DNA from: an uncultured Candidatus Saccharibacteria bacterium
GTDB taxonomy: Bacteria; Patescibacteriota; Dojkabacteria; J137
Assembly: GCA_964414295.1 (NCBI GenBank)
Contig: CAYPVU010000046.1
Location: 2,767-66,766 of the forward strand
DNA length: 64,000 bases
Direction of reading: 5' to 3'
Shown: positions 1,991 through 56,583 of the stretch, in pieces
Layout of the letters: each line of letters starts with the position of its first letter
Numbering within the stretch: position 1 is the first letter of the stretch
Position numbers and translations under genes: made by a program
The notes under the pieces: model-generated
Told to the model about the DNA's origin: nothing
The model's input: only the letters and a program-made list of their open reading frames with translations
The model's database searches: none

Positions 1991-2001
1991 TTGATAAATA
2001 G

Positions 2002-3680: not shown

Positions 3681-3695
3681 TTTAAAAAATAAATA

Positions 3696-8510: not shown

Positions 8511-8537
8511 AGGGAGCTTAACTGCTCCCTCTTTTTA
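8511..8537. terminator. bidirectional rho-independent terminator between convergent operons
   Basis: AGGGAGC-TTAACT-GCTCCCT hairpin with an A-run upstream and a T-run (CTTTTTATTTTTT) downstream. It sits between the + gene ending at 8435 and the - gene ending at 8535. Confidence 0.5.
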
Positions 8538-11500
8538 TTTTTTAATATCTCCATTTACATAATCATAAAAGTACTCTAATCTTCCCCAACCTACTATGAA
8601 TCTTCTTGATTTCTTACCTAGTTTATGATCTTCTCCAGTTAAAGCTTTCCAAACTTCTTTAAACCAGTTCATACCATCTTCTAAAGTACCAGAAGTAGCC
8701 ATAGGAGATTTTAAGATTTCCATTGCTGAGCCTAAACTTACAAAGAATGTTAATTCAGATACTAATCTATCAGATATTCTTGTAACATATCTCTCAAACC
8801 AAGTATCGTCATCATCACCATCATCAGACTTTAAAACAGTTACTAAACCAATTAATGCTGTAATAACAGCCATTTCTAATAAAACTCCTTTAAGATTAGA
8901 TTTTTCCATTTCAGATAGTTCAGAGAATTTCTTTTTACCTCTTAATATACCAAAGCCTTCTCTTAATAAAGTTCTATATCTACCTTCCACCCAAGTTTCT
9001 AATACATAATCATATTTCTTAGCTCCCCATCTAGACTCAAACTGTCTAGGAATCCAGTTACGATGTTGCATTAACAATCTACCCATTATAGTTCTATTGA
9101 TAGCTGCTTTATCATTAGGGTCTAAATTACCAGTTATATTTTTAATAACATGTAATACTTTCTGTCTAAATACTGCTATTTCTTCAGTAGTTGGTTCAGG
9201 TTTATTAGGATTATTCCAAACTAATTCTCCATCTTTAATAGTATAATCATTAAAAGATATACCATATTTACCTTCTAACATCATAGCCATCATTACAGAG
9301 TTCTGTAAAGCAAATTCAGATACTTTATATAAAGAATAAAAATGACTAGTATCAAATATCTTTTTAGATTTATAAGCAGTTAATTCTTTTGCATATTCTC
9401 TACCAAAGAAACCTGTAACTATATCAAATTTCTCCATTAGTAGTTTAGCTTTTTTATCATTTTCTGTAATACCACCATTACCTAAAGTAGCATATTTATA
9501 AGCTTTACCAAAGTTTTTAGTACTATAATATTTACCTGTTATAGCAGCAAAAGAAGCATTTGTTATATTACCTAAATGATCTACAACTGGAGCAAATAAG
9601 TTTAAACCTAAGTTCTTTAAAGATGTATAAGCTATTACTTTATCAAAAGCTTTATCTAAACCATATCTTTTACCACCTATTTCTATACCAGTTCCTTCTT
9701 CTTTAGCTCTCCCATAAAATACAGTATCTATATAATCTTTTAAGTGATTATAAGTATTAGTATTATCAGCTTTCATTTTCTTAGTACCATCAGGCATAAC
9801 TGCCTCAATAGCTTGAGTTTCTTTAATTTTATCTAAAGTAATTAAAGCAGTATTTTCTACTTCTTTTAACTCTCTATATCTATAAGCACTATCAATAAAT
9901 GTATAAAGTACTTGTCCTAAATCATAAGACTTTCTTTTATCCATAAACTCTCTTCTTTCTTCTCTATTATAGAATACCATTTCTTGAGCACCTAATACAG
10001 GAATATCATTAACTCTTTCACCAGTAATAGGATTTCTTAAACCATATTCTTTTTCATCCATTGTAAATTGTAAAGATTCAGAAGCTTCTTTTGGTAATTG
10101 TTTAATAGCTTCTAAAAAGCCTATATCCATAGCTTTCTCTACAAATTGTTTAGTAAAGTTTGGAATAAAGTTACTTCTAACATCTTTCATTGGTAAAAAC
10201 TCAGATACATCATCCATAGTTTTAGTATAAAGATCATAAAACTCTTTAAGTCTAGAATCATTTTGTATTTCTAAATACTTAGGATCAGCCCAGATTTCCA
10301 TCTTAGGTTTTCTAAACTTATTATTGTTTTTATTTCTTTCTTCCCATACTTTGATATTTTCATTGTATTTCTTTTCCCAAATATTATCAGCAATTAATAA
10401 TAGTTCATCTTGTGTTCTATCTTTATATTTATCAGATTTATTAAGATTACCTAATATTTCTACTATATCATATTTCTTTCTACCTTTTAATACTTCCTCA
10501 TAATTTTTTTTAGACGTTTTATACTTTTCATCATCTTTAATTGTATTCTTAGTAAACCATTCATCATTATTACTTCTAAGAGCTTTATTAAATTCTAACC
10601 AATAAGAATATTTAACAGGAGCTACTAAATTACCTGTTTTATTACCTTCATCATCTATTTGAAGCATTCTATCAAAATCAGAACTAGTTAGGTTATTTTT
10701 ATCAATAACAGCTTTAATTTTATTTTTTAAAGTATAAGAATCTTGTCTGCTCTTTTCTAAAGCTTTAGTAACCATTTTATAAACAGAAGCTACTAAAGGA
10801 TTTTCTGATTTACTAACACCTAACCAAAATCTAGACCACATAGAAGTTTCTACTTGTGGTTGTAAAGCATCTTCAGGAGATACTATACCATTTTGTCCTA
10901 ATATTTGTTGTTTAGTTAAATTATCACTAATAATATTAGTAGCTATTTTAAGCATAACACCTTCTAATCTCTTAGCAGTACCAACTATACTATCTACTAC
11001 AGCATGATCTTTTTTAGTTTTTAATTCTTCATCTGATAATATACTATTAAGATTAGTATATAACTTTAAACTATCTTTAATATCTTGCCAATTTAAACTA
11101 GGATCAAAGTTATCATCAGTTAATAAATCTTCTATAATAAGTAAATCTCTTTGTATAGCAGGTAATATACTAGCTAATGTTCTCTGTTTCTGTAAGTTAG
11201 AAATATATGTTTCTCTTGTAGAAATAAAATCTTTTATTTTTTCTTTCTCTTTCTCATCAGTTTGTTTAGTTAATTTTCTCTCTAATATTTCTATTTGAGT
11301 TCTAAAATTATCTATCATTTCATCAATCTTAACTATACCAGTTTTTTCTAAACCTGTAGGAATAGAATTGTTATACTCAAATGATTTTAAGAAATATTTT
11401 TTAGTATTAGTAGTTTTATCATCTTGTATAGTATAAGTATTAGATATAGGTATAATACGTTTTTTAGCTACTTTAGAAGGAAGTATACCTAGTTTAGGAT

Positions 11501-13154
11501 CACCTTTTTCAAGTATCTTAACATATTCATTAATCTGAAGATTGTAACCTTTCATTTTATTTTTATGAATACCTGATTTACTACCAGGTTTAACATCATA
11601 AATATCTAAAGTACCATCTTTCCTAATAATAAGGATATCTATTGTACCAGCTCTTTTACTAGTAGTATTAGCAACCATTACTTCAGATAATACAATAGAA
11701 CCATCTTTTTTAGCCTCAGCTATAATATCAGCAATAGTTTCTATACCAGAATCAGAACTTCTAGTATTAAGTTTAGATTTTAATATACTATATATAGGAT
11801 TACTAGAATATTTAGATTCAATAGGTTTTAAATGCTTATTCTCATTAGGAAAAGCTTCTCTAATTAATTCTGATACTATTGCATGTTTTAATAACCCTAT
11901 TTGCTTTTCTCTTTCATTTTTCTCTATATCTTCTTTAGTTTGAGTAGAACCAGCAAATCTTTTATTATAATCCTCTTCTACCATTTCAGTAGGTGATTTA
12001 TAACCTTTTTCTCCTAATACTTCATATCTCTCTCCTTTAGCTCCAGTTTCATCTTTTATTATTTTAGATTGTAACTCTTGTAAAGAAGTTAATATAGATT
12101 TTTGAGATACTTCTCCAGCTTGATAAAAATCAGAATCTTCTAATGTTTGATTATTTTTTTTAGACGTTTTACCAGAGAGTATTTCAGAAGCTATATCTTT
12201 ATAAGGATTAGATACTTTATTATCAGCTATTCTAATAGCATCAGATAACTTAGTTAATCCTACATTCTTTAATATTCTTTTTAATACATTTAATACATTA
12301 TCAAACCATCTATTAGCTTTTTCTATATTAGCTTCAGTTTCTTCACCTTTAAACTGTTTAACTATATGATTAGCTATTAATTTACCAATAGCTTCTTCTT
12401 TTATCTTATCTATATTAGATGTACCATCTTCATTCTGATATGCTACAAATGAACTATATTCAGCTAAAGTAGCTTTATATATCTCATATTTAGTTATATC
12501 CTTCATCATCTTATTAAATAAAGGATTATCTTTACCTAATAATCTTACAGCAAAGTGAGCAGCTTCTTCAGATAAAGTATCTAATCTAGATTTACCTTTA
12601 ACTACTTGTATTAAATTATCTAATAACTTAGCTCTAGCTATAACATTTAAAGGATTTCCTTGAGAATCTGTTATCTCATCTAATTCTTCTACTGTTACAC
12701 CAATACTATCTAAATATTCCTTTATAATATTATCTAAGTTTTCGTTAGCATCTTCCATCATAGAAGATACTTGATAATTACCTGATTTTATTTTTTCAAT
12801 ATTAGCTTTTCTACCATTAGAATAAGTTAAATAATAATTACCATTAGATGCTTTAGCTATATCTAAATTTAATTTTTGAGCCTCTTGTCTTAGTTGGGCT
12901 ACATGTACTAAACTACTTGGAGCAAAACCACTTTGATTAATATTCCATTTATTAAGAAAAAAATTAATATCTTTTTCAGATACTTGATAAAAATCAGTAT
13001 TAATATTAAGCTCTTCTAAAGTAGGAAATCTATCATAATTATTATTCTTAGATTGCCATACAGAAAACTTAGCAGCTACTAAATATGAAGGTAATCCTAA
13101 TCTATCAGCTGCTTGTTTTACTTCAGGATGATTTTTATTTATACAAATAATCAT
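8535..13154 (-). CDS. large virion (probably ejected) protein, 1539 aa, with an acidic patch and a C-terminal transmembrane helix
   Basis: Last gene of the late operon, with a 4-nt overlap to the giant ORF. The C-terminal region has GVLLEMAVITALIGLVTVL followed by DDGDDDD. Confidence 0.45.
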   Translation of the reverse strand: MIICINKNHPEVKQAADRLGLPSYLVAAKFSVWQSKNNNYDRFPTLEELNINTDFYQVSEKDINFFLNKWNINQSGFAPSSLVHVAQLRQEAQKLNLDIAKASNGNYYLTYSNGRKANIEKIKSGNYQVSSMMEDANENLDNIIKEYLDSIGVTVEELDEITDSQGNPLNVIARAKLLDNLIQVVKGKSRLDTLSEEAAHFAVRLLGKDNPLFNKMMKDITKYEIYKATLAEYSSFVAYQNEDGTSNIDKIKEEAIGKLIANHIVKQFKGEETEANIEKANRWFDNVLNVLKRILKNVGLTKLSDAIRIADNKVSNPYKDIASEILSGKTSKKNNQTLEDSDFYQAGEVSQKSILTSLQELQSKIIKDETGAKGERYEVLGEKGYKSPTEMVEEDYNKRFAGSTQTKEDIEKNEREKQIGLLKHAIVSELIREAFPNENKHLKPIESKYSSNPIYSILKSKLNTRSSDSGIETIADIIAEAKKDGSIVLSEVMVANTTSKRAGTIDILIIRKDGTLDIYDVKPGSKSGIHKNKMKGYNLQINEYVKILEKGDPKLGILPSKVAKKRIIPISNTYTIQDDKTTNTKKYFLKSFEYNNSIPTGLEKTGIVKIDEMIDNFRTQIEILERKLTKQTDEKEKEKIKDFISTRETYISNLQKQRTLASILPAIQRDLLIIEDLLTDDNFDPSLNWQDIKDSLKLYTNLNSILSDEELKTKKDHAVVDSIVGTAKRLEGVMLKIATNIISDNLTKQQILGQNGIVSPEDALQPQVETSMWSRFWLGVSKSENPLVASVYKMVTKALEKSRQDSYTLKNKIKAVIDKNNLTSSDFDRMLQIDDEGNKTGNLVAPVKYSYWLEFNKALRSNNDEWFTKNTIKDDEKYKTSKKNYEEVLKGRKKYDIVEILGNLNKSDKYKDRTQDELLLIADNIWEKKYNENIKVWEERNKNNNKFRKPKMEIWADPKYLEIQNDSRLKEFYDLYTKTMDDVSEFLPMKDVRSNFIPNFTKQFVEKAMDIGFLEAIKQLPKEASESLQFTMDEKEYGLRNPITGERVNDIPVLGAQEMVFYNREERREFMDKRKSYDLGQVLYTFIDSAYRYRELKEVENTALITLDKIKETQAIEAVMPDGTKKMKADNTNTYNHLKDYIDTVFYGRAKEEGTGIEIGGKRYGLDKAFDKVIAYTSLKNLGLNLFAPVVDHLGNITNASFAAITGKYYSTKNFGKAYKYATLGNGGITENDKKAKLLMEKFDIVTGFFGREYAKELTAYKSKKIFDTSHFYSLYKVSEFALQNSVMMAMMLEGKYGISFNDYTIKDGELVWNNPNKPEPTTEEIAVFRQKVLHVIKNITGNLDPNDKAAINRTIMGRLLMQHRNWIPRQFESRWGAKKYDYVLETWVEGRYRTLLREGFGILRGKKKFSELSEMEKSNLKGVLLEMAVITALIGLVTVLKSDDGDDDDTWFERYVTRISDRLVSELTFFVSLGSAMEILKSPMATSGTLEDGMNWFKEVWKALTGEDHKLGKKSRRFIVGWGRLEYFYDYVNGDIKK

Positions 13155-16100
13155 TGGTTATTCTTTAAACATTTTAACATTACTCTTTTATCTTCTTCAG
13201 TACCCATATTAAAGTAACTCTCAGTAATATCTTGAGCTTCTAACTTATCTTTAACTTCTTGTATTAAGTTTGCAAATATAATACTTTTATCTGAATTAAT
13301 CAAAGAATTTATATAATTATCTAAATTATTAAACTTATCTTTTATACCATACATTTTCATTTTTTTATTGAAATCTTCAGTATTAAAGTCTTCAGTAAAA
13401 GTATAACCATCGTTATATGTTATTTTAGCTGTAGTAACATTATTGTTAACAGAAATAACATTTATTTTAATGTTATTAAAGTTATTCTTAGAATCTATTT
13501 TATAGTCTATAATTGGTGTACTAGTTTCTTTATTCGGATGATCTATAGAAAACTCTTGATTTTTAAGTATATAATTATCTAAATTATCTGTAACTTTAAG
13601 TTCTTGTCTAACTTCCATTAATAATTTAGGAAACTCTTTACCCCATTTACCTTTATCTTGTGTATGTGTAAGTTCTGACTTTCCTGTAGCTAATAATTTT
13701 TGTAAAGCTTTTGGATTTTGTTCAAAAGAAGCTTTTATTAACTGACCCATTAATTCCGTCTGTTGTGCATCAGTAGTTGTACCTAAAGGTCCTCTAAATT
13801 TAGAAACAGTCATTACACCATTTCTATTAAAAGGAATATAAGCTCTGTTATCGTAAGTAGCTTTATCAAACTTACCGCCTTTTAAAGATTGGTATGCTTG
13901 TTCCACAGAATTAAAAGAAACACCTTTAAAAGTAAAAGGTCTAACAGCAAAGTTACTCAACTCAGCATTTTCATTAGTATCTGCGTAAATATTAATTTTA
14001 GGTAAACTTGGGTCAAATAAATTATCTATTGGTGCTTCTTTAGCAGGAACAGATAATTCAACTGGATTTAATAAAGCACTTGTTAATTCATCTTCTATAA
14101 CATTATCTTGCTCAACATTAGTTTCATTTATTTCAATAGTAGATATAGGAGTAGGTTTAACCATATTATATTCATTAACTCTTCCTAAAGAATCAGCAAT
14201 AAAGTTTCTTTGCTCTAAAGTTAATCCAGTATTATTTTCATCTATAATACTTTTCTTTTTAGTCTTATACCATTCTTGTAAATTAGCTCCATTACCTAAA
14301 GGATTATCTATTACAAAAACAGGCATATCTTGAGAATCTTTACCCATATTTTCATAGATAAACTCTCTCTTAGCATCAGGATTCCACATTTTAATATACT
14401 TTTTATTAGAGTATACTTTATTATAATCAGATTTTTTTAAAGAAAACCCTAAAATTCTATCACCATCTTTATATACTCTATTAGTATTATATAAAGGTAT
14501 CATTTCTTGTAACTCTTGATTAAATACCATATTATATAATTTAAACTTAGATAATACAGTTTTCCAATTATTTTTAGCAAATTGAACTACAAATCCTCTA
14601 GTAATACCTTCTTGATCTTTAATATAAGCTTCTTTAAATAAATTTAAAGCTCTTTGTAATACTGGTATCATTTTATCAGCAGGTAAGTATTTCATATAAC
14701 TTAAATAACTTTCTGCTATACCAGATTGAAATAAAGCTAAATCTATTAATTTACCTCCTAAAGCAGGATTAGTATTAAATAACTCTTGTATAGAACCTGT
14801 TATCTGATCTGATGTATATTTATTAAACTTTTTATTAATAAACTGTACATTATCTATACTTGATTTATTTTTAATAAGAGGTATAACATATCTATTTATA
14901 AATAGATTATTATGTAAAGGATGATTAGGATCTCTCTTAATAGCTAATATTTGTTTACCAACAGAGTTATCACCTAAAAATAATTCTTTTAATAAATTTT
15001 GGTTAACTAATGTTTCATCTAATCCTACTAAGTATACATAATTTAAAAATGAATCAGTTATAGTATCTAATAATTTTTCATCTTGGATATCTCCTTCTAT
15101 GTTCATAAATGATTTAATTTCATTTAAGAACTTTTTATATAAAGGAGAACCAGTTAATAATAATTGCCCCCATAAGTCTATTGAAAATTTAGCACCATTG
15201 TTTTTAAATCCTCTCATAAAAGTAGCATTATATACTTCTTTTAAATTAGGTATTAGTACTCTACCAATAGGAACAGTTGGATCTATACCAGCTTTTTCTT
15301 GTTTAGCAATATAATTATAAGCACTAGGAAGATCTTTACCTACACCAAATGTATCATCTTTAGTAGCATTAATAGCATCAGTATACAATTTAGAATCTTC
15401 CATTAATCTTAAATAGTCATCTAATAATTGTAACTGTAATTTAGCATTTTCTGCTTCAGATAGTTGTCTAAGTTCTCTTAAATTATTAAAGTTAAAAGTA
15501 TTATTACCTAGTATATTATCTCTATCTTTTTTGTATTGAGTGTTTACAAACTTTATAACTTCAGGTTCTTTAGCATCATATAAACTATATTGATATAACT
15601 TAACAGAATCTTTGTTTAATTGTTTAATATACTTATCTCTTATTTTTTTAATTACTTCATTTTTACTTAAATTATTCTTACCAGTTAAACCTTTATTAAT
15701 TCTAGATTCTTTCACAAAATCTCTAATAATAGGTTGATTTAAGAACTCTATAACAAACTTATAATCAGCTCCTATAGAAATCATATATAAAGCTAAATCA
15801 GTTGTCATAGGATTAATATTCATCTTAGAAATAAATGGATCTTTAGCATTATCCACAAATGCTGTTAAGAACTCAGAAATCATTTCAGATATCAATGTAT
15901 TTCCTTTATTATCATAAACACCAGCTAATGATGGATATCCTTCTTGAGTTTTATTAAAATCAAAATTATAACTAAATCCTGGAACTACATATAGATTAGC
16001 AATTTGTGATAATATGTGGAAAGTATTGTGTAATGCTGATTGACCAACACCTGCTTTACCTTCCATATTTCTAACATGAGTATCTAATATTGTAGGAAAC

Positions 16101-19100
16101 TCTATTAATTTAGATCCTTTTACTTTACTAGAACCATCATCATAAAACTCTTCATATAGTTGTTTAAGCTTAGTACTACCATTAGGAGTAATTAACTGTT
16201 TAAATATTATATCATTAGGACCACTATTTCTTAATACAGTATGATTAATTTGATTTAATCTATTTTGTAATATTTGCTCTTCTGATAAAGGTTTATTATC
16301 AAAGTTATGATTATTAATAAATATATTTAATTTATCCACGTCAAAATCAGAACCACCTTGTGCAACTATCTCAGAAGGTACTACAACAGATTGTCCAGAT
16401 TCAGCAGGTAAAAATCCTACTATTTTAAAACTAACCATTGAGTTAAGTCCTTGTGTAGGAATACGATATCCTAATACATCTAATAATTCAGGATTAATTT
16501 TAGCTAAGTCTTCAACTGTTTTAACACCTTTATCAGCCCACATATTAGGAACTAATATTTCAGCTTGTAGAATCTCTTTACCATTTTTATCATTCTTTCT
16601 AACAAAAGCTAATCTTCTAGATCCTACTTCTTTATCAGTTTTCATACCAACAGTTTCAAATCCTGTTGATGCTACTTGAATTAATGTAGTACCTTTAGTT
16701 TTTTGTTTAATAATTCTATTATTAACTAAAGCTTGGAATAAGTTTTCTATTTTATTTCTAACTACAAGAGAATCTAAACTAGCCTTTAGTTTACTAGGAT
16801 TGTCTTTATCATATAATTCATCAAGACCATCTATAATATTCTCAGGTAAATTTCTTTGTCTTACTTCAGCCTTAATTAACTTTAATAGTTTTTCAGTATT
16901 ATTAAAAGTATAAATATCTTCTTCTTTAGTTACACCTAGCTCAGATAATAACTTTTCTTTAGATATTTCTGTAAGTCTATCTATAATATCAGAATACTCA
17001 TTAAATAATTCAGTAGCTGTAACTTCTTTATTATTATAAAAGTCAATTAACTGATAGTTATTATCAACACCTAGACCAAATAAATTAGAGAATAATAGTT
17101 TTCTTAGCTGTGTACCGTATAATATATTAGTTTTAACTTCCTGATTAGTATCTAACTGTAATCTTAAATAATCTAATCTTATTTTATTAGTATATAATTC
17201 TCCTTTATTAGATATTTTAATATCACTATTAGGATCATTATTTACATATAAATCATTTAACATAACCTTTGAGGGTGTACCTACTTTATTACCTGATTCA
17301 AATACAGCTATACCTACTCCATTATTCATTAAAGATTTATTTAAGTTCTCTAATTTACTACCTTTAATCATTGTAGGTAATAAAGGAACTAATGATAACT
17401 TTAAATAGAATGGTACATAAGAATCTTTATAATTTAGATCTGGTCCATAGTGCATTGGTTTTATTGGACTAAATAAAGCAAACTCTTCTTTAGTAATAGT
17501 TTGGTTATTCATTAATTTCTTATAAGCAGCTTCATGCGAATCAGACCAATAATAACCACCTAATCTAATCATATAATCTCTAAATGCAGGTAATGTAATA
17601 TATCCTTGAGCATCTGCTTCATTTAATTTAGCATAAGTTTCATCTACTATAGCAGGATCAATATATTTTTTATATTCATCTGTTAATAAAGATGTAATTA
17701 TAACATCCTTATAAACAGCTACTTTCATAGTACCATCTGTAGGATATTCAGATACTTGCTCAGGAAGTACGTTAATAAAATGATCTCTATATATTAAATT
17801 ATTAATATAAGAATCAATAGCAGGTATCTTACCAGTTGCTATTATACCAGGAGTTCTTTTATAGAAATCTTTAAAATAAGCTAAATCACCAAAAAATAAT
17901 TTAGTTTGTTCTATTGCACTAATTAACTCATTAACTCCAAATATAGCAGCTATTTCATTAATTTTATAAGATTGTAAGTTTTTACTTAAATCTGAAGAAG
18001 TTACATTAAACTCTTGTAATTTAGGTAATAATCTATTATTAGTATAATCTGTTAGATAATCAAATAACTCTCCTCTAAATCTATCTAATAGTTCATCATA
18101 TACTTTAGTACCTTCAATAATAGGTAACTTATAAGTTATTAAATCACTTTTTAGTTTATCAGATAACCAATCAAATAATAAAAACTCTTTACCATTTTTA
18201 TCAAACTCTTCTACTCCTTCTAATGTATCATAACTATTGATTCTATTAAGTTCATCTAATACATATCCAAAGAATTGTCTTTGTAACTCAGGATTAACAG
18301 ATACTCTATTATTATCTATTTGTATATCTTCTTTAGTAAATACTTTTAATCCTTTTAAACCATATTCTAATTTCTTATCAGCAGGTCTTAATAAAGTATG
18401 TATTTTATTATCTAATAAGTCTATTATCCTAGATATAATAATATCTTTTTCAGATAGCTTAGAATGATGTTTAGATTCTTCTTCAGCACTAATACCATCT
18501 CTAATAACTATTTGTAATTTACTATTATTTTTAATCTGTCCTAACCAAGTACTATGAACAATATTTTTATTGTTAGCAGTATCTAATTGAGGTAATACTT
18601 TATTATTTTTTAAATCATTAATTATTTGAGCTAAATAATTATATAAAGTAACAGCATAAACAGATTTACCTTCAGAATTAATAAAGTTTAATTCTATTTC
18701 ATCAACAGAATTAAGAGCTTCCATATTAATTAACTGTTTAAATCTACCAGCAGATATATTATCACCATAGTTAAACCATTCAGTAATTTGTTTATCTTCA
18801 TTTATACTTTTTAGTACTTCAGCTTTTAACTCAGCTACTATACCTTTAGCTTTCTTATAAGTTTCTTCATTACTTAATTTAATACCTAAAGAATCTAAAA
18901 ATAATTTATCATTATCTTTAACACTATTATATAGTTTTAATTTTTCTTCTTTAGTTCCAATAGAATATTTAGAATTTTTAATTCCTGATAAAAACTCTTT
19001 TCTAATTTTACTTTCAAGCTTTTCTGTAATAGCATCTATAGAATAAATGTTACCATCTCTATCTACAATTGTTTTTACATAGTCATTTTTAGTTTTACTA

Positions 19101-22100
19101 AATGCTTGAACAAAATCATATAATAATCTAGCTTGATCTAAATCTTTAATAGTTAAATCTTCAGTAACTCCTAAATGATCTAATATTTGATACATCCAAG
19201 GATATTGATTAACATTGTTTTTAAGAACATTAATCATAGAAGGCATATCAGTAATACCATTTAAAGTTTCAGCTAATATAGCCCAAGTTTTATCAAAGTC
19301 TACTAATTTAACTTCTCCTTTAGCTATTGCAGTATAAAGGTTACCTTTATCATTAAACACACTAGCATCTTTATATTCAAATAAATTGCGTATTAATAAT
19401 TTAATAGTATTAGGTAATCCATTCTTAGATGAAAATTCAACAGATGGTTTAAAATCTAAACCTGAGTTTCTATCATTTATTTTAATCTCATCATACTCTT
19501 CTACTTCATTAAATGTAGATAACCCAAACTCTGATAAATTATCATAATGTAATTTAGAAAACTCATTCCAGTTTTGTATAATTAAACTATATAATTTTGT
19601 ATCTGCTACAGAATTAGCTTCTTTAATATAATCTAATAACATAGGGTAGTAGTAAACTTCTAACATCCCTTTATCAGATATTTTACTTAAATGCTTTTGT
19701 GAAAATCCTCTTTTAGTATAGATATTCATGAATATAATATTCATAGCATCTAAAGCAGTTTTAACTTGTTCTTGAGTTAAACTTACTTTTCTAGTAACAT
19801 TATTATCATCAGTATAATTAAATATTCTAACTCTAAAGAAGTTATTATTAGTTGTATTTAATTTATTTAAATTACGAGTAATAGGTGTAGCATTAGCATA
19901 CATACCTTTATTAATTTTATTAAATAAAGTATCAGCATCTAATGGTTTACCTAATATTAAATGTTTAAAGAAATCAAATATCTTTTGGAAGAAATTCTTT
20001 TTAGTTTTTTCTTCTTTATTAAATTTTAATTTACCATCTGATAATACATAATCTCTAAACTCTTCAGCTAATGCTTCTTCCACTTCTAAATCTGTAGCAT
20101 TAGGTTTATTGTGTCTTTTTCTATAATCATTGTATAATGATAATCTTTGCTTATCATTTAAAAATAATTGTGATACTACGTGAAAAGCTTCATGGTAAAC
20201 AGTACCTACTTCTGCTACTTCAGATACTTCAACTGTACCTAATTTCTCAGCAGATACATAAAATCTACCAAATGCTTCTTGTCCATATTTAGCAACTTCT
20301 ATTAAATCAGATACTTTAAGAAACTTAATTTGAGGAAATCTTTCTCTAAACCAAGCTTCTTCTTTTTCCATATCTATCTTTTCATATGGATTATTATCTG
20401 TTTTAAGTCTAAAATTAAAAGGTAGAGCAATATCTCCAGATTCAGTTAAATTAATATCTAATGCAGATCCTGTGGTTGTTTCACTGTTAACTTCTGTTTT
20501 ACTAATTACAGGTTGACTAGCAGATTGTATATTTAAAGCTTCTAAAGCAGCTTGTGAAGCATCATCTATTACTATACCAGTATTATCAACAGGTACTTCT
20601 TCTTGCATACCTTCTTTAATATCTATATCTATATTAGTAATATCAACAGCTTGATTTATATCACCAAATGCAGACATTACAGACTCATTGACTGTAGGAT
20701 TATTAGTTGGTGAAACAGGCTCTGACTTATTACCTAATACATTAGATAAGCTAGTGCCAGTAAGAGTAACTTTTTGAGTAGAAGTAGTCTTAGCTATAGG
20801 TTGATCATATAGATTATTAGAATCATATGAAAAATATACACTTAAAAATCTTTTACCAGTATTATTAACGTTCCCTACAACATCTGTTGAAAATATAGGA
20901 GTTCTCTTTTGAGGAGCTATAGATTTACTACCAGGTGTAGCATGAGCAGTTAAATACTTAGCATAACTATCATATAAGTTATAGTTTTTAATTTCAAGCT
21001 TTTTATCTTTTATTTCCCAATTAGTTATCTCTAAATGTTTACTAGTATTATCTCTTTGTTGATCTAATAATTTTTTAGATACATTATTTAATTTATTTTC
21101 TAATAACCAATCTTTTAATAACTTTTGATTTTGTTCATCAGCTATCTTATCCATTGTAATAGTATTTTCACCAAATACTAAACTATTAGCTTCATAATCA
21201 AAGTATATAGCAGTCTTAGGATTCTGATTATTATTTCCCCAATAAATTAAAGATCCTATAATAGAATAAGATTTATCTTGAATATTTTCAGATTGTTTAG
21301 ATGGTACTAAATAATATTTAAAACCATCTATCATAATATGATTTTGTCTAAAATTAGATAAATCACCATTAGATATATTAGATATATATTTTAATATATC
21401 TATAATTAAATCAGCATTTTTACTAGAAATATTATTAGGTACTAATTCAGCAACTGTACCTTCAGGTCCTAATATTACTTGCCCATTAGCATTAGGAATA
21501 AAGTAATATAAAGCTCCTGATTTTCTAACATTTTTAATACTACCATCAGGTAATACTATATGAGGAGTTTTATTATTCTCAGTGGTTTGTGCTACAAATA
21601 AAGACTTATGTAAATTATCATCTACACCAAAAGTTTCTTCTACATTATTTCTAGCTCTTTGTCCATTTCTAGTAACAATAGTATTTAATATACCATTAGA
21701 TTTACCAGTAACTTTTAAATATACAGGTTTATCAGATGACTTAATTTTATTTCTAAAGTCCTCAAACTTTTGAATATCATCTACTCTACGTTTATTATAT
21801 TCTTCTTCTGTTTCACCAGGTCTAGTTTCTGAAGCTAATACTCTATCATAATATGTAGGTTCATGTATAAATGCATATAGATGTACTCCATCTACTATAA
21901 CAGGTTCAGTACCATTATATAAAAATACTTTGATAGTACCATCTTCTTGTGCTTCAGCTCTTAAAAAATAATTATTATCTACAGTATTATTCTTAGGATC
22001 TCTTAGATAATCAAACCATTTATCAGCATCATTTTCAGTATTAAATTCTAACTGACCTTCTTCATTAAATATATCTTCATACTCTCCAGTATATAATACA

Positions 22101-25100
22101 TCTAATCCAGCAGTAGAATATAAATTAGGTTTAGCTTTTCTAGTTAACTTATGAGTAGTTTTAGCTACATCTAAAGAATTATCTTTTGTATCATTAGACT
22201 CTTGTTCATTAAAAGATATTTCTCCAGGTCTAGATACACTATTAGTAGATTGTTTAAATAAGCTAGAATAACGTTTTTTATGCTTATCTAATACTTTTTT
22301 ATATTTAGCTAAAGGTTTTAACTCAGCTTTATATTGTTCTAATAATCTTTCTTTTTCTTTTATTAAATTTTCTAATATAGCTGCTTCATTTTCTCTTAAA
22401 GTAATTTCTTCATTAAGAGCAATATTTTCTTTAGAATTAACAGGTAAGTTATCTAACTCTTTTATAGAATTAACTTTATCTAATAACTTTTTAAAATATT
22501 CATATTTACCTCTTAACGCAGCTTTAAGTTTATTAATTATTTGTTTTAAAATAGATAATGATTCTTTAGCTGTAGATATAGCCTTTTCTGTATCTTCAAT
22601 TAATTTTTCTAATTGAACAGCTCTACCATCTAAATCAACTAAATTAAGAGAAGCTAACTCAGGTCTTTTAGATTCTAAATCGTTTTTCTCAGATTCTAAT
22701 TTACTTATTTCAGATTGAATAGAATAATAAATATTATTTAATTTTTCAATCTTTTCTAAGATAAATTTATTTTTTATTTTTTTCTTATCTTTAGTAATAT
22801 TAGATATTTCTTCTAATATTTTATTAGCTTCATTTTCTTTAGCTGTTATTTTTCTATTAATAGAATCTATTCTTCGATCTAATTGAGATAGAAGTTCATT
22901 AATTGTAGCTAATCTACTAGCAGCATCAATAAAGTCTTCATTAGCTTTATTTCTTAAACTTAAAGCAGCTTCATCTAACTTACGAGGCTTATATTTATTT
23001 TTGTTTTTGAATAACTCATTAATAGCATATCTAGTAACACCACCAGTAGGTTTGTGTACTTCTAAGAACTTATTACCAGAAGCATCTTGTATTACAGTAC
23101 CTTCTAATATTTGTCCATCTATATCTACTTCTACAATGTCACCAGTATTATATTCAGCTTCAAATTCTTTTAATTCTGTTTCATCCTTAGCAGCTTTAGT
23201 TTCTTTTTCATTAACTATTTTAGTAGCTTCTTCTTCTTTCTTTTTAGCTTCTTTAGCTTTCTTCTCAATAGTTTGAGGATTAGTTAATTCATCAAATCTT
23301 TTATAAGACTTTCTTAATTCTTTTATAAAAGCTTTTCTTTCTTTCTCTAAAGCTTCTAAATCTTTTTTAGAAGGTGATCCTTGTAGTTCATCAGAAAGTT
23401 CTTCAGCAGCTTCAGAAAGAGCTTCAGCAAATAAGTTTTTATCTTTTTCTAATTCTGCTTGTTTAATAGATACTTTATTGTTTAAAGCTTCTAAACCTTC
23501 TTTTAAACTTTTTTGTACTAAGGCTTCATTAAATATTTGATTTCTAACAGCAGGAGTAATTCCTCCAAATCTATCTGTTAGTTGATTATATAATTGTTCT
23601 AACTCTAAAGCTTTTTGTCTATATTCTCTAGATATAGTTTTACCATCTATAACATTACCTTTAGAATCTTTCATTTCAGGTAATACTATACCTTGTTGAG
23701 CTAATTGCTCATTAGTTAAGTCTTTAAGAGAATCTATCTCATTTAATAATCTTTCTCCTAAACCAGCTTCAAAATGAGTAAAAGCCCATCTATTAAATTG
23801 CTGATCTTTAAAGTAATTAAATAGTTCTTCACTACCAGCCTTAGCAGCTAGTTCTTGAGCTTCTTGTAATTTACCAGATTGTGCGTATTCTTGTATAGTT
23901 TTAATTATAGCATTCTTATCAACTTTTAATTCTCCAGTTTTTTCATCTTTAGTAATAAATTTACCAAAAGTATCATTCTTAAACTGATTAGCGTCTATAA
24001 GCTTTTTAAGATCTTCTAATTGTTTTCTTTCAGCTTTACCTCCTTCACCTATAGCTTTAGCAGAAGCTCCAAATAATCCACCTAAGATCATACCTGCTCC
24101 CATTGCATCCCAACCTTCTTTAGTTGTAAATGCGTTCATATATTCTTTAAATACTCCAGATATAGTTCCTAAATCTTCATAATCTGGTTCTAAATATTTC
24201 TTTTTATTATATTCTTGGAAAGCGTGTTGTAAACCTTCTTCAACTATACCTTCACTAAATGCTTGAGTAGCAAACTCTTTACCTATTTGTTTAGTAACAG
24301 CTTTCTTAGGTAAAGCAATAGTACCATCTTCTAATACATCTAATAAAGCTTTTCTACTATTATTATATCTTCTAAACCAAGAAGCAGCTTGCATCTTTTC
24401 TAAAGGTAATAGTAACATATTTAAACCAACTGTAGACATAGCAGCTTCAGCAGCTTTTTTCTTAGCTGTAGAATCATCATATCCTTGATTTAATAAATCA
24501 GAATATACTTCATCATATGTTTGTTTACCTTCAGCAATAGACTCTATAGATCTTGCAACACTACCAACAGTCCATTCAGATAGTTCTTTTGTAACTTTAT
24601 TTAAAGGAGTTTTTTGTAAGCTATTTGCATTTAATACTTTAATAGCAGCTTTATCTCCCATACTAGCAGCTTGTTCTAAAGCACCTAATTCTCCTATACT
24701 TAATCTAGTAGCATCAGATAATCTTTTACCATATAAAGATTTAGTAGCAGGTCCTATTAATTTACTAGCCCCATAACCAGTTAAATAAGCAGAAGCTATA
24801 AAAGCAGCACCATCAACTAAATCATCTGTCCAATAATCTAAGTCTGTTAAAGCTCTATGTAAGAAGTTTTTATTTTGATCAGCTTTAGTATTATAAATAG
24901 GAAGAGCTTCTTTTATACTTTCTTCAATATCCATAATAGCTCTAGATACAGGATTTTCAAATAAAGCAGAAGCATCTTGTTGAATAAGAGCAGAAGGAAT
25001 ACCTATTAGTATATCAGATATACTTGTAGCAGCTTTAGTAACTGTAGTACCAGCTAATCTACCTATACCATGAGCTACTGATTCACCTATACCAAATCTT

Positions 25101-25375
25101 TCAGCTCTAATTTCTTCTAATTCATCTTTAGAGAAATATGGAGATCTAAAGTCCATATCTCTAACATCTTCATTAGTAGCCCAAGATTTACCGTAACCAG
25201 CAGTTTCTGTAAAAATATTTGATCTGCTACCAGATTTGTAGTTTCCTCTTAATATATCATCAACTGTTAAAACAGGTGCTTGTCCTTGTAAATTAGTATT
25301 AGTAGAAGTAGATTTTTTATTTTTATCATCTCCTCCTGTATTACCAGTTAAAATATCATCTATTATAGCGCTCAT
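13151..25375 (-). CDS. giant multidomain virion protein (4074 aa): coiled-coil N-terminal third, HExxH zincin motif, crAss-like virion RNA polymerase DxDxD motif, C-terminal NADAR/YbiA-like domain
   Basis: Uninterrupted 12.2-kb ORF. VYHEAFHVVSQLF at about aa 1728. SDFDVDK at aa 3010-3014 (nt 16334..16348). NADAR-like ELSNFAVRPFTFKGVSFNSVEQAYQSLK...FEQNPKALQKLLATGKSELTHTQDKGKWGKEFPKLLMEVRQEL at aa ~3795-3927. Confidence 0.6.
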   Translation of the reverse strand: MSAIIDDILTGNTGGDDKNKKSTSTNTNLQGQAPVLTVDDILRGNYKSGSRSNIFTETAGYGKSWATNEDVRDMDFRSPYFSKDELEEIRAERFGIGESVAHGIGRLAGTTVTKAATSISDILIGIPSALIQQDASALFENPVSRAIMDIEESIKEALPIYNTKADQNKNFLHRALTDLDYWTDDLVDGAAFIASAYLTGYGASKLIGPATKSLYGKRLSDATRLSIGELGALEQAASMGDKAAIKVLNANSLQKTPLNKVTKELSEWTVGSVARSIESIAEGKQTYDEVYSDLLNQGYDDSTAKKKAAEAAMSTVGLNMLLLPLEKMQAASWFRRYNNSRKALLDVLEDGTIALPKKAVTKQIGKEFATQAFSEGIVEEGLQHAFQEYNKKKYLEPDYEDLGTISGVFKEYMNAFTTKEGWDAMGAGMILGGLFGASAKAIGEGGKAERKQLEDLKKLIDANQFKNDTFGKFITKDEKTGELKVDKNAIIKTIQEYAQSGKLQEAQELAAKAGSEELFNYFKDQQFNRWAFTHFEAGLGERLLNEIDSLKDLTNEQLAQQGIVLPEMKDSKGNVIDGKTISREYRQKALELEQLYNQLTDRFGGITPAVRNQIFNEALVQKSLKEGLEALNNKVSIKQAELEKDKNLFAEALSEAAEELSDELQGSPSKKDLEALEKERKAFIKELRKSYKRFDELTNPQTIEKKAKEAKKKEEEATKIVNEKETKAAKDETELKEFEAEYNTGDIVEVDIDGQILEGTVIQDASGNKFLEVHKPTGGVTRYAINELFKNKNKYKPRKLDEAALSLRNKANEDFIDAASRLATINELLSQLDRRIDSINRKITAKENEANKILEEISNITKDKKKIKNKFILEKIEKLNNIYYSIQSEISKLESEKNDLESKRPELASLNLVDLDGRAVQLEKLIEDTEKAISTAKESLSILKQIINKLKAALRGKYEYFKKLLDKVNSIKELDNLPVNSKENIALNEEITLRENEAAILENLIKEKERLLEQYKAELKPLAKYKKVLDKHKKRYSSLFKQSTNSVSRPGEISFNEQESNDTKDNSLDVAKTTHKLTRKAKPNLYSTAGLDVLYTGEYEDIFNEEGQLEFNTENDADKWFDYLRDPKNNTVDNNYFLRAEAQEDGTIKVFLYNGTEPVIVDGVHLYAFIHEPTYYDRVLASETRPGETEEEYNKRRVDDIQKFEDFRNKIKSSDKPVYLKVTGKSNGILNTIVTRNGQRARNNVEETFGVDDNLHKSLFVAQTTENNKTPHIVLPDGSIKNVRKSGALYYFIPNANGQVILGPEGTVAELVPNNISSKNADLIIDILKYISNISNGDLSNFRQNHIMIDGFKYYLVPSKQSENIQDKSYSIIGSLIYWGNNNQNPKTAIYFDYEANSLVFGENTITMDKIADEQNQKLLKDWLLENKLNNVSKKLLDQQRDNTSKHLEITNWEIKDKKLEIKNYNLYDSYAKYLTAHATPGSKSIAPQKRTPIFSTDVVGNVNNTGKRFLSVYFSYDSNNLYDQPIAKTTSTQKVTLTGTSLSNVLGNKSEPVSPTNNPTVNESVMSAFGDINQAVDITNIDIDIKEGMQEEVPVDNTGIVIDDASQAALEALNIQSASQPVISKTEVNSETTTGSALDINLTESGDIALPFNFRLKTDNNPYEKIDMEKEEAWFRERFPQIKFLKVSDLIEVAKYGQEAFGRFYVSAEKLGTVEVSEVAEVGTVYHEAFHVVSQLFLNDKQRLSLYNDYRKRHNKPNATDLEVEEALAEEFRDYVLSDGKLKFNKEEKTKKNFFQKIFDFFKHLILGKPLDADTLFNKINKGMYANATPITRNLNKLNTTNNNFFRVRIFNYTDDNNVTRKVSLTQEQVKTALDAMNIIFMNIYTKRGFSQKHLSKISDKGMLEVYYYPMLLDYIKEANSVADTKLYSLIIQNWNEFSKLHYDNLSEFGLSTFNEVEEYDEIKINDRNSGLDFKPSVEFSSKNGLPNTIKLLIRNLFEYKDASVFNDKGNLYTAIAKGEVKLVDFDKTWAILAETLNGITDMPSMINVLKNNVNQYPWMYQILDHLGVTEDLTIKDLDQARLLYDFVQAFSKTKNDYVKTIVDRDGNIYSIDAITEKLESKIRKEFLSGIKNSKYSIGTKEEKLKLYNSVKDNDKLFLDSLGIKLSNEETYKKAKGIVAELKAEVLKSINEDKQITEWFNYGDNISAGRFKQLINMEALNSVDEIELNFINSEGKSVYAVTLYNYLAQIINDLKNNKVLPQLDTANNKNIVHSTWLGQIKNNSKLQIVIRDGISAEEESKHHSKLSEKDIIISRIIDLLDNKIHTLLRPADKKLEYGLKGLKVFTKEDIQIDNNRVSVNPELQRQFFGYVLDELNRINSYDTLEGVEEFDKNGKEFLLFDWLSDKLKSDLITYKLPIIEGTKVYDELLDRFRGELFDYLTDYTNNRLLPKLQEFNVTSSDLSKNLQSYKINEIAAIFGVNELISAIEQTKLFFGDLAYFKDFYKRTPGIIATGKIPAIDSYINNLIYRDHFINVLPEQVSEYPTDGTMKVAVYKDVIITSLLTDEYKKYIDPAIVDETYAKLNEADAQGYITLPAFRDYMIRLGGYYWSDSHEAAYKKLMNNQTITKEEFALFSPIKPMHYGPDLNYKDSYVPFYLKLSLVPLLPTMIKGSKLENLNKSLMNNGVGIAVFESGNKVGTPSKVMLNDLYVNNDPNSDIKISNKGELYTNKIRLDYLRLQLDTNQEVKTNILYGTQLRKLLFSNLFGLGVDNNYQLIDFYNNKEVTATELFNEYSDIIDRLTEISKEKLLSELGVTKEEDIYTFNNTEKLLKLIKAEVRQRNLPENIIDGLDELYDKDNPSKLKASLDSLVVRNKIENLFQALVNNRIIKQKTKGTTLIQVASTGFETVGMKTDKEVGSRRLAFVRKNDKNGKEILQAEILVPNMWADKGVKTVEDLAKINPELLDVLGYRIPTQGLNSMVSFKIVGFLPAESGQSVVVPSEIVAQGGSDFDVDKLNIFINNHNFDNKPLSEEQILQNRLNQINHTVLRNSGPNDIIFKQLITPNGSTKLKQLYEEFYDDGSSKVKGSKLIEFPTILDTHVRNMEGKAGVGQSALHNTFHILSQIANLYVVPGFSYNFDFNKTQEGYPSLAGVYDNKGNTLISEMISEFLTAFVDNAKDPFISKMNINPMTTDLALYMISIGADYKFVIEFLNQPIIRDFVKESRINKGLTGKNNLSKNEVIKKIRDKYIKQLNKDSVKLYQYSLYDAKEPEVIKFVNTQYKKDRDNILGNNTFNFNNLRELRQLSEAENAKLQLQLLDDYLRLMEDSKLYTDAINATKDDTFGVGKDLPSAYNYIAKQEKAGIDPTVPIGRVLIPNLKEVYNATFMRGFKNNGAKFSIDLWGQLLLTGSPLYKKFLNEIKSFMNIEGDIQDEKLLDTITDSFLNYVYLVGLDETLVNQNLLKELFLGDNSVGKQILAIKRDPNHPLHNNLFINRYVIPLIKNKSSIDNVQFINKKFNKYTSDQITGSIQELFNTNPALGGKLIDLALFQSGIAESYLSYMKYLPADKMIPVLQRALNLFKEAYIKDQEGITRGFVVQFAKNNWKTVLSKFKLYNMVFNQELQEMIPLYNTNRVYKDGDRILGFSLKKSDYNKVYSNKKYIKMWNPDAKREFIYENMGKDSQDMPVFVIDNPLGNGANLQEWYKTKKKSIIDENNTGLTLEQRNFIADSLGRVNEYNMVKPTPISTIEINETNVEQDNVIEDELTSALLNPVELSVPAKEAPIDNLFDPSLPKINIYADTNENAELSNFAVRPFTFKGVSFNSVEQAYQSLKGGKFDKATYDNRAYIPFNRNGVMTVSKFRGPLGTTTDAQQTELMGQLIKASFEQNPKALQKLLATGKSELTHTQDKGKWGKEFPKLLMEVRQELKVTDNLDNYILKNQEFSIDHPNKETSTPIIDYKIDSKNNFNNIKINVISVNNNVTTAKITYNDGYTFTEDFNTEDFNKKMKMYGIKDKFNNLDNYINSLINSDKSIIFANLIQEVKDKLEAQDITESYFNMGTEEDKRVMLKCLKNNQ
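13595..13993 (-). other. NADAR (YbiA/DUF1768-like) domain segment of the giant ORF
   Basis: Aligns by eye with E. coli YbiA. GDFSNFAAWP..DG..W.TSEHYFQAQKF matches ELSNFAVRPFTFKGVSFNSVEQAYQSLKGGKF. FEQHAELRALLLAT...WGDGGHGKGKNRLGYLLMELREQL matches FEQNPKALQKLLATG...WGKEFPKLLMEVRQEL. Confidence 0.6.
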
Positions 25376-25390
25376 TATTATTTAATTTAA

Positions 25391-25430
25391 TTTGCAAATA
25401 TACTAAATATATTTAATATTCACAAATATA
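25391..25430 (-). promoter_or_regulatory. two copies of the Bacteroidota -7 element TAnnTTTG (TATATTTG) upstream of the giant gene
   Basis: Plus-strand TTTGCAAATATA (25391-25402) and CACAAATATA (25421-25430). Reverse-complemented they read TATATTTGCAAA and TATATTTGTG, lying 16-50 nt upstream of the ATG at 25375. Confidence 0.4.
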
Positions 25431-25447
25431 GAATATAATATTATTTA

Positions 25448-25654
25448 TTATCCAAACAATTCATTATAGAAGTTAATATCTTCTTTTTTAAATATAGCTT
25501 TAGAAAAATTATCTAATCCTACAGTATTTATTATTTCTTGTAACTTACTATCAGAATTAAATTTATCAGAACCAATTTCTTTTATTAAATGTTTTAAATA
25601 TGATTCTGTATTATTTTCAAAAGCTGGTGCATATTTACTTATAAATTGTTTCAA
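25448..25654 (-). CDS. hypothetical small protein
   Basis: 68-aa ORF upstream of the giant gene. Confidence 0.3.
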   Translation of the reverse strand: MKQFISKYAPAFENNTESYLKHLIKEIGSDKFNSDSKLQEIINTVGLDNFSKAIFKKEDINFYNELFG

Positions 25655-25878
25655 AGTAAGATTTCTAGAAGCATCTAACGCTACTTGTTTCTTTAAAGCT
25701 GTAAATCCTTCTTGAGGATTATTAAACTTAGCCCAGTATCCTATAACTTTACCAGACTTATCATATCTAGGTTCACCTTTAGTAGCTCCAGGTTGATTAG
25801 CAAATACTAAGTTTCCAGGATTATTATGATATTTTGCTATAGACTGTCCTGACTCTTTCCTGGTTTGAGTAGGACTTT

Positions 25879-28278: not shown

Positions 28279-28292
28279 AATTTATATTTTTA

Positions 28293-56500: not shown

Positions 56501-56583
56501 TCTTCACAAAAATAATCAGTATTTATGAAAGTAGTAGGGTTTGTTAAATAAGGTATATCATGTATAAGTATATCGTTACTCAT
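53542..56583 (-). CDS. terL: terminase large subunit interrupted by an intein (1013-aa precursor)
   Basis: Candidate P-loop remnant AKSRRKGF sits at the N-extein/intein junction. Nuclease-domain motif LAGTDPYDHDQSGTTSLGSTIIIDK (RuvC-like G.DP....D). Gene order TerL-portal. Confidence 0.65.
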   Translation of the reverse strand: MSNDILIHDIPYLTNPTTFINTDYFCEEAKRFVKYNTYCDAPEGTYEYQEYWDEQDRRCREGYTVGGIRITGEHYAYLNFGRIKITEGEGKKARKYEGFPRFLDMDYYYYHELEKAKLNKEGIIVAKSRRKGFEQPNSELVLTPFGFKPMGTLKPNDLVMNPDGYPTRILEVYPQGKKDVYELELRDGRKVKCGLEHLWEIIDQRGKKRIVNTKFFLDKKLKRNKGNKCYYAYFIENCKPLNFYDLPLPIDPYLLGVLIGDGSLTKSSLEFSSNDEQLVNIVKDILKSRYNVNKTTTPFKYSITVKDGGPGTPNNLLRFIQNLKLNVKSYDKFIPEIYKKGSYDTRLELLKGLMDTDGTSSPNGTCRFTSSSETLANDVVDICRSLGLRATKSKSSNGRKLMNFPNNKQSIVRDSWVVNIITDYEIFKLDRKNKNIKKRKYNHNKVAITSVKKLDYQEESSCILVENPNHLYITRDYIVTHNSYKGAFNTVYEYNWYRNSFSIIAAFLAEYSQTTMNMALDMINFINTNTDWAKRKLIDTRQYIKSGFKEKINGIEVESGFKSEIMTMSFKDNPFKSIGKSASVMLFEEAGKWTGLIESYMLSKPLFSDGEIMIGIPIIYGTGGDMEGGTQDFADMFYNPSSYGLRAYENIWDENAIGSCGWFVDDSWYKPPYVDKDGNSDRAKAKESLLLKREIVKKSGNKRAYEKEITQQPLSPAEAFLRTSGNRFPLADLQIILSQVEGSERIQNTNYIGDIVFNPNSLKYEWKPNPNLNPLKEFPLTKDQDSEGCVVIYEMPYEDEEGNVPFGRYLAGTDPYDHDQSGTTSLGSTIIIDKITNRIVAEYTARPKTANEYYEILRRLLHFYNARCLYENEKKGLFQYLEGKNETYLLLDQPAYIKDVIQNSKVERGKGMHMNKSLKDHGEDLIIMWLLEDYDSSNGIKNMHKIRCIPLLKELIAYNPEGNFDRVMSLMMCMYHIQEVKKVKIEEANDKNDILNSDFWNRKLFTKRKNKLW
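55138..56172 (-). mobile_element. intein with LAGLIDADG homing endonuclease domain inside terL (about 345 aa)
   Basis: Two LAGLIDADG blocks (YLLGVLIGDGSL and LLKGLMDTDGTS). C-terminal splice motif ...YIVTHN|SYKG (His-Asn followed by Ser). The N-terminal junction is near ...EQPN|SELVLTPFG. Confidence 0.6.

Follow-up and report, generated by a model that had tools for sequence, protein, structure and literature searches.

A 4074-residue probable cargo protein of a crass-like phage, with a zincin-like module, a two-barrel virion RNA polymerase and a NADAR domain in one chain

Is a reading frame of more than 12 kb, with several enzymatic modules in one chain, a genuine phage gene, and if so, what would its product do and is the arrangement new? 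The question is raised by a 64,000-nucleotide stretch of DNA (the window; contig CAYPVU010000046.1 of GenBank assembly GCA_964414295.1), in which one unbroken ATG-to-stop open reading frame (ORF) at 13151..25375 on the minus strand encodes 4074 amino acids (aa). All genes and modules given below by window coordinates lie on this strand. According to our analysis the product of this ORF is very probably the principal cargo protein that a crass-like phage ejects, a natural fusion of a gp67/gp47-like protein that ends in a zincin-like module with a gp66/gp50-type RNA polymerase (RNAP), to which a NADAR domain was added near the C-terminus. We favor a fusion because of the homologies of the modules, the synteny of the locus and the many colinear relatives. 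The ORF and its colinear giant relatives together delimit a gp67/gp47-like module, a spacer, the zincin-like module, the two-barrel RNAP, the NADAR domain and a cysteine-bearing tail.

The evidence for the polymerase is strong. The two-barrel virion RNAP module (aa ~1900-3700; 14276..19678) was recognized by a phmmer search against the PDB, which matched 6VR4, the virion RNAP gp66 of Cellulophaga phage phi14:2, with E 3.3e-45. Residues 2467-3040, 3032-3258 and 3512-3606 of the giant protein pair with residues 865-1409, 1486-1708 and 1929-2023 of gp66, in which the original paper places the following elements: 1095-1238 (connector), 1529-1559 (bridge helix) and 1598-1636 (trigger loop). The aligned ranges take in all three of these elements as well as the catalytic DFDID, and the homology therefore covers the catalytic core. 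A preliminary description of the window, made from the letters alone, had noticed a DFDVD triad at aa 3010-3014 (16334..16348) and compared it to the metal-binding loop of gp66. The comparison was right, and sequence similarity sufficed to establish it without superposing folds, since the triad aligns with the catalytic DFDID and GGSDFDVDK here pairs with GSDFDIDK in gp66. DFDVD is the sole DxDxD in the protein, but about 1.3 such motifs are expected by chance from the composition, so that the motif by itself is meaningless and needs its alignment context: in an alignment of six sequences Y, R, I, P, G, D, F, D and D are invariant around it (YRIP...GSDFDxDK). The RNAP part also adjoins gp67-like and gp65-like parts within the crassvirus cargo/transcription block. 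The assignment to the phi14:2 gp66-type two-barrel virion RNAPs is firmly supported at the level of sequence and synteny.

For phi14:2, gp66 is a virion RNAP that has been shown experimentally to transcribe early genes, and orthologues of gp65/66/67 and gp47/49/50 are present in virions (including PMC10172136). As the gene sits in a late structural operon, one might instead regard its product as a structural tail or fibre component in which the RNAP-like region is a decayed relic. We consider this highly improbable: the catalytic motif and the invariant residues that flank it are intact, the orthologues are proven ejected and active polymerases, and cysteine is nearly absent as in other cargo proteins, while structural proteins contain 1-3%.

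The NADAR domain near the C-terminus (aa ~3789-3934; 13574..14011) is likewise firmly supported, by profile and predicted fold, as the preliminary description had proposed. A search with this segment retrieved 51 homologues, most of them recorded with PF08719. A profile built from 47 homologues matched E. coli YbiA (E 8e-15) and PnNADAR (E 1e-10) in the PDB. The AlphaFold2 (AF2) model has a core predicted local distance difference test (pLDDT) score of 84-95, and Foldseek connected this model only to YbiA (E 4e-5) and to PnNADAR with bound ADP-ribose (E 5e-4), both at probability 1.0. All four colinear relatives that were scanned carry a NADAR above the Pfam threshold (44-57 bits). The similarity to PF08719 was thus found in this copy too, below the Pfam cut-off but significant by profile and fold. 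In PnNADAR from Phytophthora the catalytic residues are E43, K50 and E125, the last replaceable by Asp or His (PMC11543638); Glu3825 (13901..13903) corresponds to E43 and Lys3832 (13880..13882) to K50, at identical spacing. His3904 and Gln3906 are invariant and Asp3907 is nearly so. A weak Pfam Phage_30_3 signal occurs in this NADAR and in its relatives; a direct sequence match to T4 was not found at E<=1e-3.

Between the N-terminal part and the polymerase lies the zincin-like metallopeptidase module (aa ~1660-1850; 19826..20398), which holds invariant residues and aligns with a gp65-type module. The protein contains a single HExxH, the HEAFH at aa 1728-1732 (20180..20194), where 0.026 are expected by chance from composition. 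H1728, E1729, H1732 and the distal E1767 (20075..20077) are invariant in 14 aligned homologues at 23-44% identity. In a PDB profile search with the module, zinc proteases stand alone at the top, first Zmp1/PPEP-1 of C. difficile, then FtsH, and E1767 falls opposite the PPEP-1 residue that serves as third zinc ligand (E185 by our count along the alignment, E 0.07). An hhalign comparison with the gp65-type HExxH region gave a probability of 95.9% and E 6.2e-9 over 102 columns that include the distal Glu; the gp65-type module bears the name Zincin-like in the literature. The sequence logic supports a zincin, although the fold is not confirmed.

The module would probably process or activate the chain, or attack a host barrier. 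It may also have nothing to do with chain processing, being a peptidoglycan- or host-protein-directed enzyme at entry, or an inactive remnant. Drobysheva et al. offer both RNAP activation and peptidoglycan digestion as options, cleavage sites are unreadable from sequence, and the unconfirmed fold counts on the same side; but the strict conservation of H, E, H and the distal E in homologues that have otherwise diverged widely speaks for a catalytic module and against a remnant. We regard a non-processing module as rather unlikely, with a substantial chance of being right.

The N-terminal quarter of the protein differs from its first portrayal, in which the leading ~1000 residues were a coiled-coil or low-complexity region. 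A heptad-like signal indeed exists but is limited to aa ~780-1000 (by a crude periodicity test), whereas aa ~75-600 belong to a conserved, gp67-like module. This N-terminal module (aa ~73-603; 23567..25159) was found by blastp to residues 55-554 of the virion protein gp67 of phi14:2 (E 1e-16), residues 73-585 being the part aligned to the gp67 N-terminus, and the giant relatives P0063, P0135 and L086 share it in conserved, colinear form. It is followed by a variable, K/E-rich spacer (aa ~604-1600; 20576..23566), for which no homologue was found: residues ~600-1600 have none at E<=1e-5 among 214 related proteins. Pfam and PHROGs returned nothing for residues 1-3790. The C-terminal tail (aa 3935-4074; 13154..13573), which holds the protein's sole cysteine, has no detectable homologues.

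Is the chain real? It is encoded, as first described, by one uninterrupted ORF near the end of the late operon, and the identical 4074-aa protein is on record in an 86,316-bp Logan contig from SRR8581213. The gene is the penultimate one of a minus-strand late block that also holds the genes of the portal and ring protein 1, and capsid, portal, ring and muzzle genes lie upstream of it. The crassvirus muzzle protein (30715..34893; Pfam PF25731, E 1.5e-146, plus PF25729) places the locus in a crassvirus tail/cargo block. Two Cys-free proteins of 799 and 784 aa (25879..30647) stand between the muzzle and the giant gene, in synteny with cr109_1 and cr130_1, at the positions of crAss001 cargo C2 and C1. 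The cargo role of these positions is taken from crAss001 (PMC10172136), and by their position both proteins would be cargo. Downstream follows a 1539-aa protein (8535..13154), a predicted gp65/gp49-like cargo protein whose start codon overlaps the stop codon of the giant ORF; its C-terminal part resembles phi14:2 gp65 (E 1e-11) and also cr109 gp52 and cr126 gp002.

A long frame whose source is a single metagenomic contig could in principle be an assembly chimera of separate genes. We found nothing in favor of such an origin and regard it as extremely improbable. Independent genomes and metagenomic proteins are colinear with the ORF over all modules (cr109 gp53, cr130 gp79, P0063, P0135, P0106, L086, L063), base composition is even along the whole 12.2 kb, and the single-cysteine pattern described below matches the fused state exactly.

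The fused gene is not new in kind. The arrangement had at first been taken for an undescribed one, on the understanding that crass-like phages normally split these cargo functions over several genes of 1-2.2 kb. Neither view survives comparison with relatives. In Steigviridae the separate genes encode proteins of 1350-2500 aa, and in Suoliviridae they are fused into chains of 4328-5801 aa. Fused, syntenic ORFs are present in the RefSeq Suoliviridae genomes cr109_1 (4328 aa), cr10_1 (4460 aa), cr4_1 (4491 aa), cr50_1 (4774 aa) and cr130_1 (5801 aa), and the order of muzzle, two small proteins, giant ORF and an ORF of ~1400-1500 aa is common to the window, cr109_1 and cr130_1. Eighty IMG/VR loci were fetched using the catalytic region; most of their RNAP ORFs measure 3500-4800 aa, with a match to the zincin hidden Markov model (HMM) in 51/80 and a NADAR in 3/80. 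An exhaustive search with the C-terminal 425 residues yielded 728 proteins, of which the best 127 representatives besides the query were examined: 66 exceed 2000 aa, and at least 13 (13/127 best), each standing for a distinct metagenomic protein cluster, carry zincin, GxDFDxD and NADAR in this order. The same three-module order occurs in gp79 of cr130_1. Both the fusion of three cargo proteins into one huge polyprotein in some phages and crAss-like RNAP genes of up to ~6000 aa, a hallmark of the group, are already in print. Because giant fused genes are the norm in a large branch of the crAss-like phages, the claim of novelty fails; the 4074-aa gene adds one more divergent member to a kind that is both known and common. 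It also corrects the idea that a fused polymerase of 4000 residues is unusual in this group.

The closest counterpart with the same layout is gp79 of cr130_1 (Chuhaivirus simiae, Suoliviridae; YP_010113266.1, 5801 aa). It shares the synteny and the order of a gp67-like N-terminus, HExxH (at 2642; 33% identity, E 7e-12), DFDID (at 4229) and a NADAR-like region (5155-5415, E 8e-13), and has a Cys four residues from its end, comparable to the terminal Cys here. It differs by ~1700 additional residues, TAG recoding, more internal Cys and an identity of only 24-33%. In gp53 of cr109_1 (Buchavirus splanchnicus, Suoliviridae; YP_010112503.1, 4328 aa) the gp67-like, zincin and RNAP parts lie between the same flanking genes, with HExxH at 1718 (here 1728) and DFDID at 3222, and a Cys at the C-terminus precedes an N-terminal Cys4 in the protein that comes after; this chain has no NADAR and is also subject to TAG recoding. 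Thirteen of the metagenomic giants (P0059, P0062, P0063, P0088, P0090, P0099, P0114, P0170, P0179 and four more; 3429-6000 aa for the ten full-size ones) combine a zincin HMM match, GxDFDxD, a C-terminal NADAR and a terminal Cys in the order seen here, but are only 22-35% identical outside the NADAR, and some carry extra domains, e.g. DUF7831 in P0059. Polymerase and NADAR also share one chain in gp003 of cr126_1 (Kolpuevirus hominis, Steigviridae; YP_010111697.1, 2402 aa), which RefSeq names a 'DUF1768 domain-containing protein', DUF1768 being NADAR. Its NADAR is 41.7% identical to ours (E 5e-24) but N-terminal (aa 53-208), and the chain is not fused to a gp67-like/zincin part.

Phage phi14:2 has homologous modules in the same gene order and with the same terminal-Cys pattern, but divided over three genes, gp67, gp66 (PDB 6VR4) and gp65, of 1797, 2180 and 1421 aa. 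Its HExxH is located in gp65 and not before the RNAP, and NADAR is missing. In phi14:2 terms the 4074-aa protein equals gp67 + zincin module + gp66 + NADAR, followed by a gp65-like protein that, unlike gp65 itself, has no HExxH. An HExxH is present in only about one quarter of the gp65-like proteins examined. Outside the crass-like phages, the virion RNAP gp50 of N4-like phages (Schitoviridae) and the polyvalent proteins (Iyer et al. 2017) likewise place a number of domains that act early on a single delivered chain. The N4 enzyme is also a giant, packaged and ejected polymerase fused to zincin-like metallopeptidase domains; it is, however, a T7-like single-subunit enzyme whose fold is unrelated to the two-barrel RNAPs. 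In polyvalent proteins a single phage chain carries multiple enzymatic domains that are unrelated to each other, as a rule around a zincin hub and encoded among virion genes (Iyer et al. 2017), and zincin-like, RNAP and NADAR modules are found here together in one ORF of the late block.

Several observations weigh against the identification of the chain as an ejected, multi-enzyme cargo protein. Packaging, ejection and early transcription are known for orthologues alone. The zincin matches in the PDB profile search are marginal (E 0.07-1.4, best 0.07), Pfam gives no match for this region, neither here nor across the 14 homologues, and the AF2 model of the HExxH region, built from four sequences (three homologues), reaches a pLDDT of just 40.8; the putative peptidase of the preliminary description therefore stands as to the position of HEAFH and the conserved HExxH...E module, but not as to a confirmed zincin fold. 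The cleft-blocking domain of gp66 (residues 196-233) was not detected, and no alignment was obtained to gp66 1-850, a highly divergent region. Concerning the NADAR, this copy scores 23.6 bits against PF08719, where the cut-off is 35.1, and the third catalytic position lies somewhere within T3903-H3904-T-Q3906-D3907, on which the alignments disagree by one residue.

With these points taken into account, an ejected fused cargo protein is still the reading that we favor. By analogy with phi14:2 and crAss001, the protein would be made late and packed in the cargo zone of the capsid. It would leave through the tail, partly unfolded, ahead of or together with the DNA, and its RNAP would then transcribe the early genes. 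The NADAR domain would probably remove ADP-ribose, either from the bases of phage DNA or from signals derived from ADP-ribose. Arriving with the polymerase, it would act before any phage gene is expressed and could so shield early transcription from ADP-ribosylating defences such as DarT1. DarT is known to stop phage DNA replication and transcription (PMC11825919, PMC11543638).

Whether DNA is the substrate can be argued from both sides. Iyer et al. 2022 hold that the NADARs of phages act mainly on ADP-ribose derivatives of low molecular weight and that virions often contain them (PMC9503650), and YbiA is among our structural matches; the domain could therefore act on soluble ADP-ribose-derived immune signals or by-products, or as a YbiA-like housekeeping N-glycosidase. 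Against this, all non-YbiA NADARs tested, among them several unrelated phage ones, de-ADP-ribosylate DNA and counter DarTG1 (PMC11825919), and fusion to a polymerase that tracks along DNA suits a DNA substrate. We consider a soluble-signal or housekeeping role unlikely, though far from negligible. T4 AdfN (gp30.3) and other phage NADARs have the same fold but occur as small early proteins in their own right, separate from any virion polymerase. The literature that we searched does not mention NADAR/DUF1768 on crass polymerases.

The crassvirus cargo chain behaves like a polyvalent protein, NAD/ADP-ribose enzymes being its exchangeable add-ons. The placement of NADAR differs by lineage (N-terminus, C-terminus or upstream of the zincin). 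In the gp47-like protein gp056 of cr85_1 (L009, NC_055883; Steigviridae; also in P0004) the C-terminal 986 aa hold an ART-PolyVal domain right after the zincin (E 2e-21, above the Pfam threshold). An ART at a comparable cargo position links these chains to ADP-ribose chemistry, while leaving the substrate unidentified. The NADAR described here is 80-85% identical to those of L008, P0005, P0057 and P0058, whereas the adjoining RNAPs share only 25-35%, which suggests either a recent exchange of the module or a much stronger constraint on NADAR. The recurrent NADAR and ART add-ons suggest that defences based on ADP-ribosylation put crassviruses under pressure from the first minutes after entry, and the NADAR-bearing chains are testable candidates for pre-packaged anti-DarT factors; in the literature searched we met no mention of this.

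Two further observations concern this type of NADAR. A second class of giants, 2400-5300 aa long, has NADAR in mid-chain, no GxDFDxD, usually no zincin match and zero Cys (P0060, P0069, P0081, P0087, P0109, P0123, P0125 and others). What looks like a free-standing 447-aa NADAR gene in L008 probably results from sequence masking immediately before it and was not counted as an arrangement of its own.

How would such giant proteins be held in order? A possible answer lies in their cysteines. The 4074-aa protein contains a single one, Cys4069 (13169..13171), five residues before its C-terminal residue, and the 1539-aa protein downstream also contains a single one, Cys4 (13143..13145). The 799- and 784-aa proteins upstream have none, and nearby structural proteins have 1-3%. 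In phi14:2, gp67 ends in its sole Cys, gp66 carries Cys3 and Cys2179 (of 2180 residues), and gp65 carries Cys3 only. The same was noted in L004, L008 and L016-L096. We surveyed 69 non-redundant IMG/VR loci. Among the 61 RNAP ORFs with a complete C-terminus 51 have a Cys in the last 9 residues, and the other 10 have no cargo ORF after them; 45 of the 48 ORFs that follow an RNAP have a Cys within the first 7 residues. The combination of no C-terminal Cys with an N-terminal Cys in the next protein never occurs in the 69 loci, and at the upstream junction 31/33 loci are concordant. The median Cys content of the RNAP ORFs is 0.05% vs 1.75% in 11 neighbouring upstream ORFs, a small control.

The pattern depends on the position of a protein in the series. 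In the first link (gp67/gp47-like) one Cys stands within about the last 9 residues. The RNAP and the small inserted proteins, as middle links, have one at residues 2-6 and one at the C-terminus, and the last link (gp65/gp49-like) has an N-terminal Cys only. Where links are fused, both junction Cys are gone. Crassvirus cargo proteins may thus form a head-to-tail series of fixed order, joined via terminal Cys, an idea read from sequences that we put forward tentatively, and against which we would still lean slightly; the cargo order may correspond to the gene order wherever the genes are adjacent. Most simply, the tethers would be disulfides that arise in the virion and are reduced once they reach the cytoplasm of the host, and in the giant fused ORF a peptide bond would take the place of one such tether. 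Virions of crAss001 do contain disulfides. If true, tethering would provide equimolar packaging of huge proteins and their ordered, threaded ejection through a narrow tail, and it is testable in the cultured phages crAss001 and phi14:2. The literature searched contains no description of the terminal-cysteine pattern that we could find.

Other explanations of the pattern were considered and rejected or set aside. A translational-coupling signal at the nucleotide level, at the overlapping stop and start codons, is ruled out by the crAss001-like phage PhiCrAssBcn13: its gp47-like gene lies on the strand opposite the RNAP and keeps the C-terminal Cys, and the RNAP keeps Cys5. As genes on opposite strands obey the rule, the pattern operates at the protein level. 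Joining by native chemical ligation or in an intein-like manner does not agree with an N-terminal Cys at residue 3-6, instead of 1 or 2, and with the lack of an intein domain. Independent packaging signals at each terminus fail to explain why Cys is missing at the start of the first link, at the end of the last link and in fusions.

Which phage does the gene belong to? The major capsid protein (47797..49245; Pfam PF23898, E 4e-143) reaches ~35% identity with its top match among 147 crass-like records; its best matches are Suoliviridae, which the genome organisation also resembles. Between the RNAP and its closest relative identity does not exceed 35%, and a megablast search of the ORF against phage genomes gave no nucleotide match. 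Membership in Suoliviridae, the delta crAss-like family, calls for close relatedness of hallmark proteins (major capsid protein, TerL); a capsid protein at 35% and the missing nucleotide match fall short of this. The phage appears to be a deep-branching crass-like lineage outside the described families. The G+C content of the window is ~23-34%.

Some minor observations on this and related loci are added. The giant ORF is preceded by a 504-nt gap (25376..25878) in an otherwise tightly packed operon; the gap contains a 68-aa ORF (25448..25654), and its promoter-like matches do not exceed the number in shuffled sequence. In the 1539-aa protein, aa 412-579 give a weak, sub-threshold match to PD-(D/E)XK nucleases (E 0.0017). 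In cr131_1 (L006, NC_055902; 1..15881) the RNAP gene is split exactly at DFDxD: the upstream piece stops with the residue that corresponds to aa 3010, a 242-aa ORF lies in between, and the downstream piece, which carries a NADAR-like region, resumes with the counterpart of aa 3011. Giant RNAP fusions are mislabelled in RefSeq (NC_055892, NC_055901, NC_055868, NC_055891) as 'DprA-like DNA recombination-mediator protein', the label of cr130_1 gp79, as 'DNA helicase' or as 'nuclear pore complex protein-like protein'. Finally, the ORF that heads the late block (1013 aa; 53542..56583) contains, by domain match, a LAGLIDADG homing-endonuclease domain at aa 345-399, which is probably an intein in a putative large terminase, as has been reported for delta-group crass-like phages.

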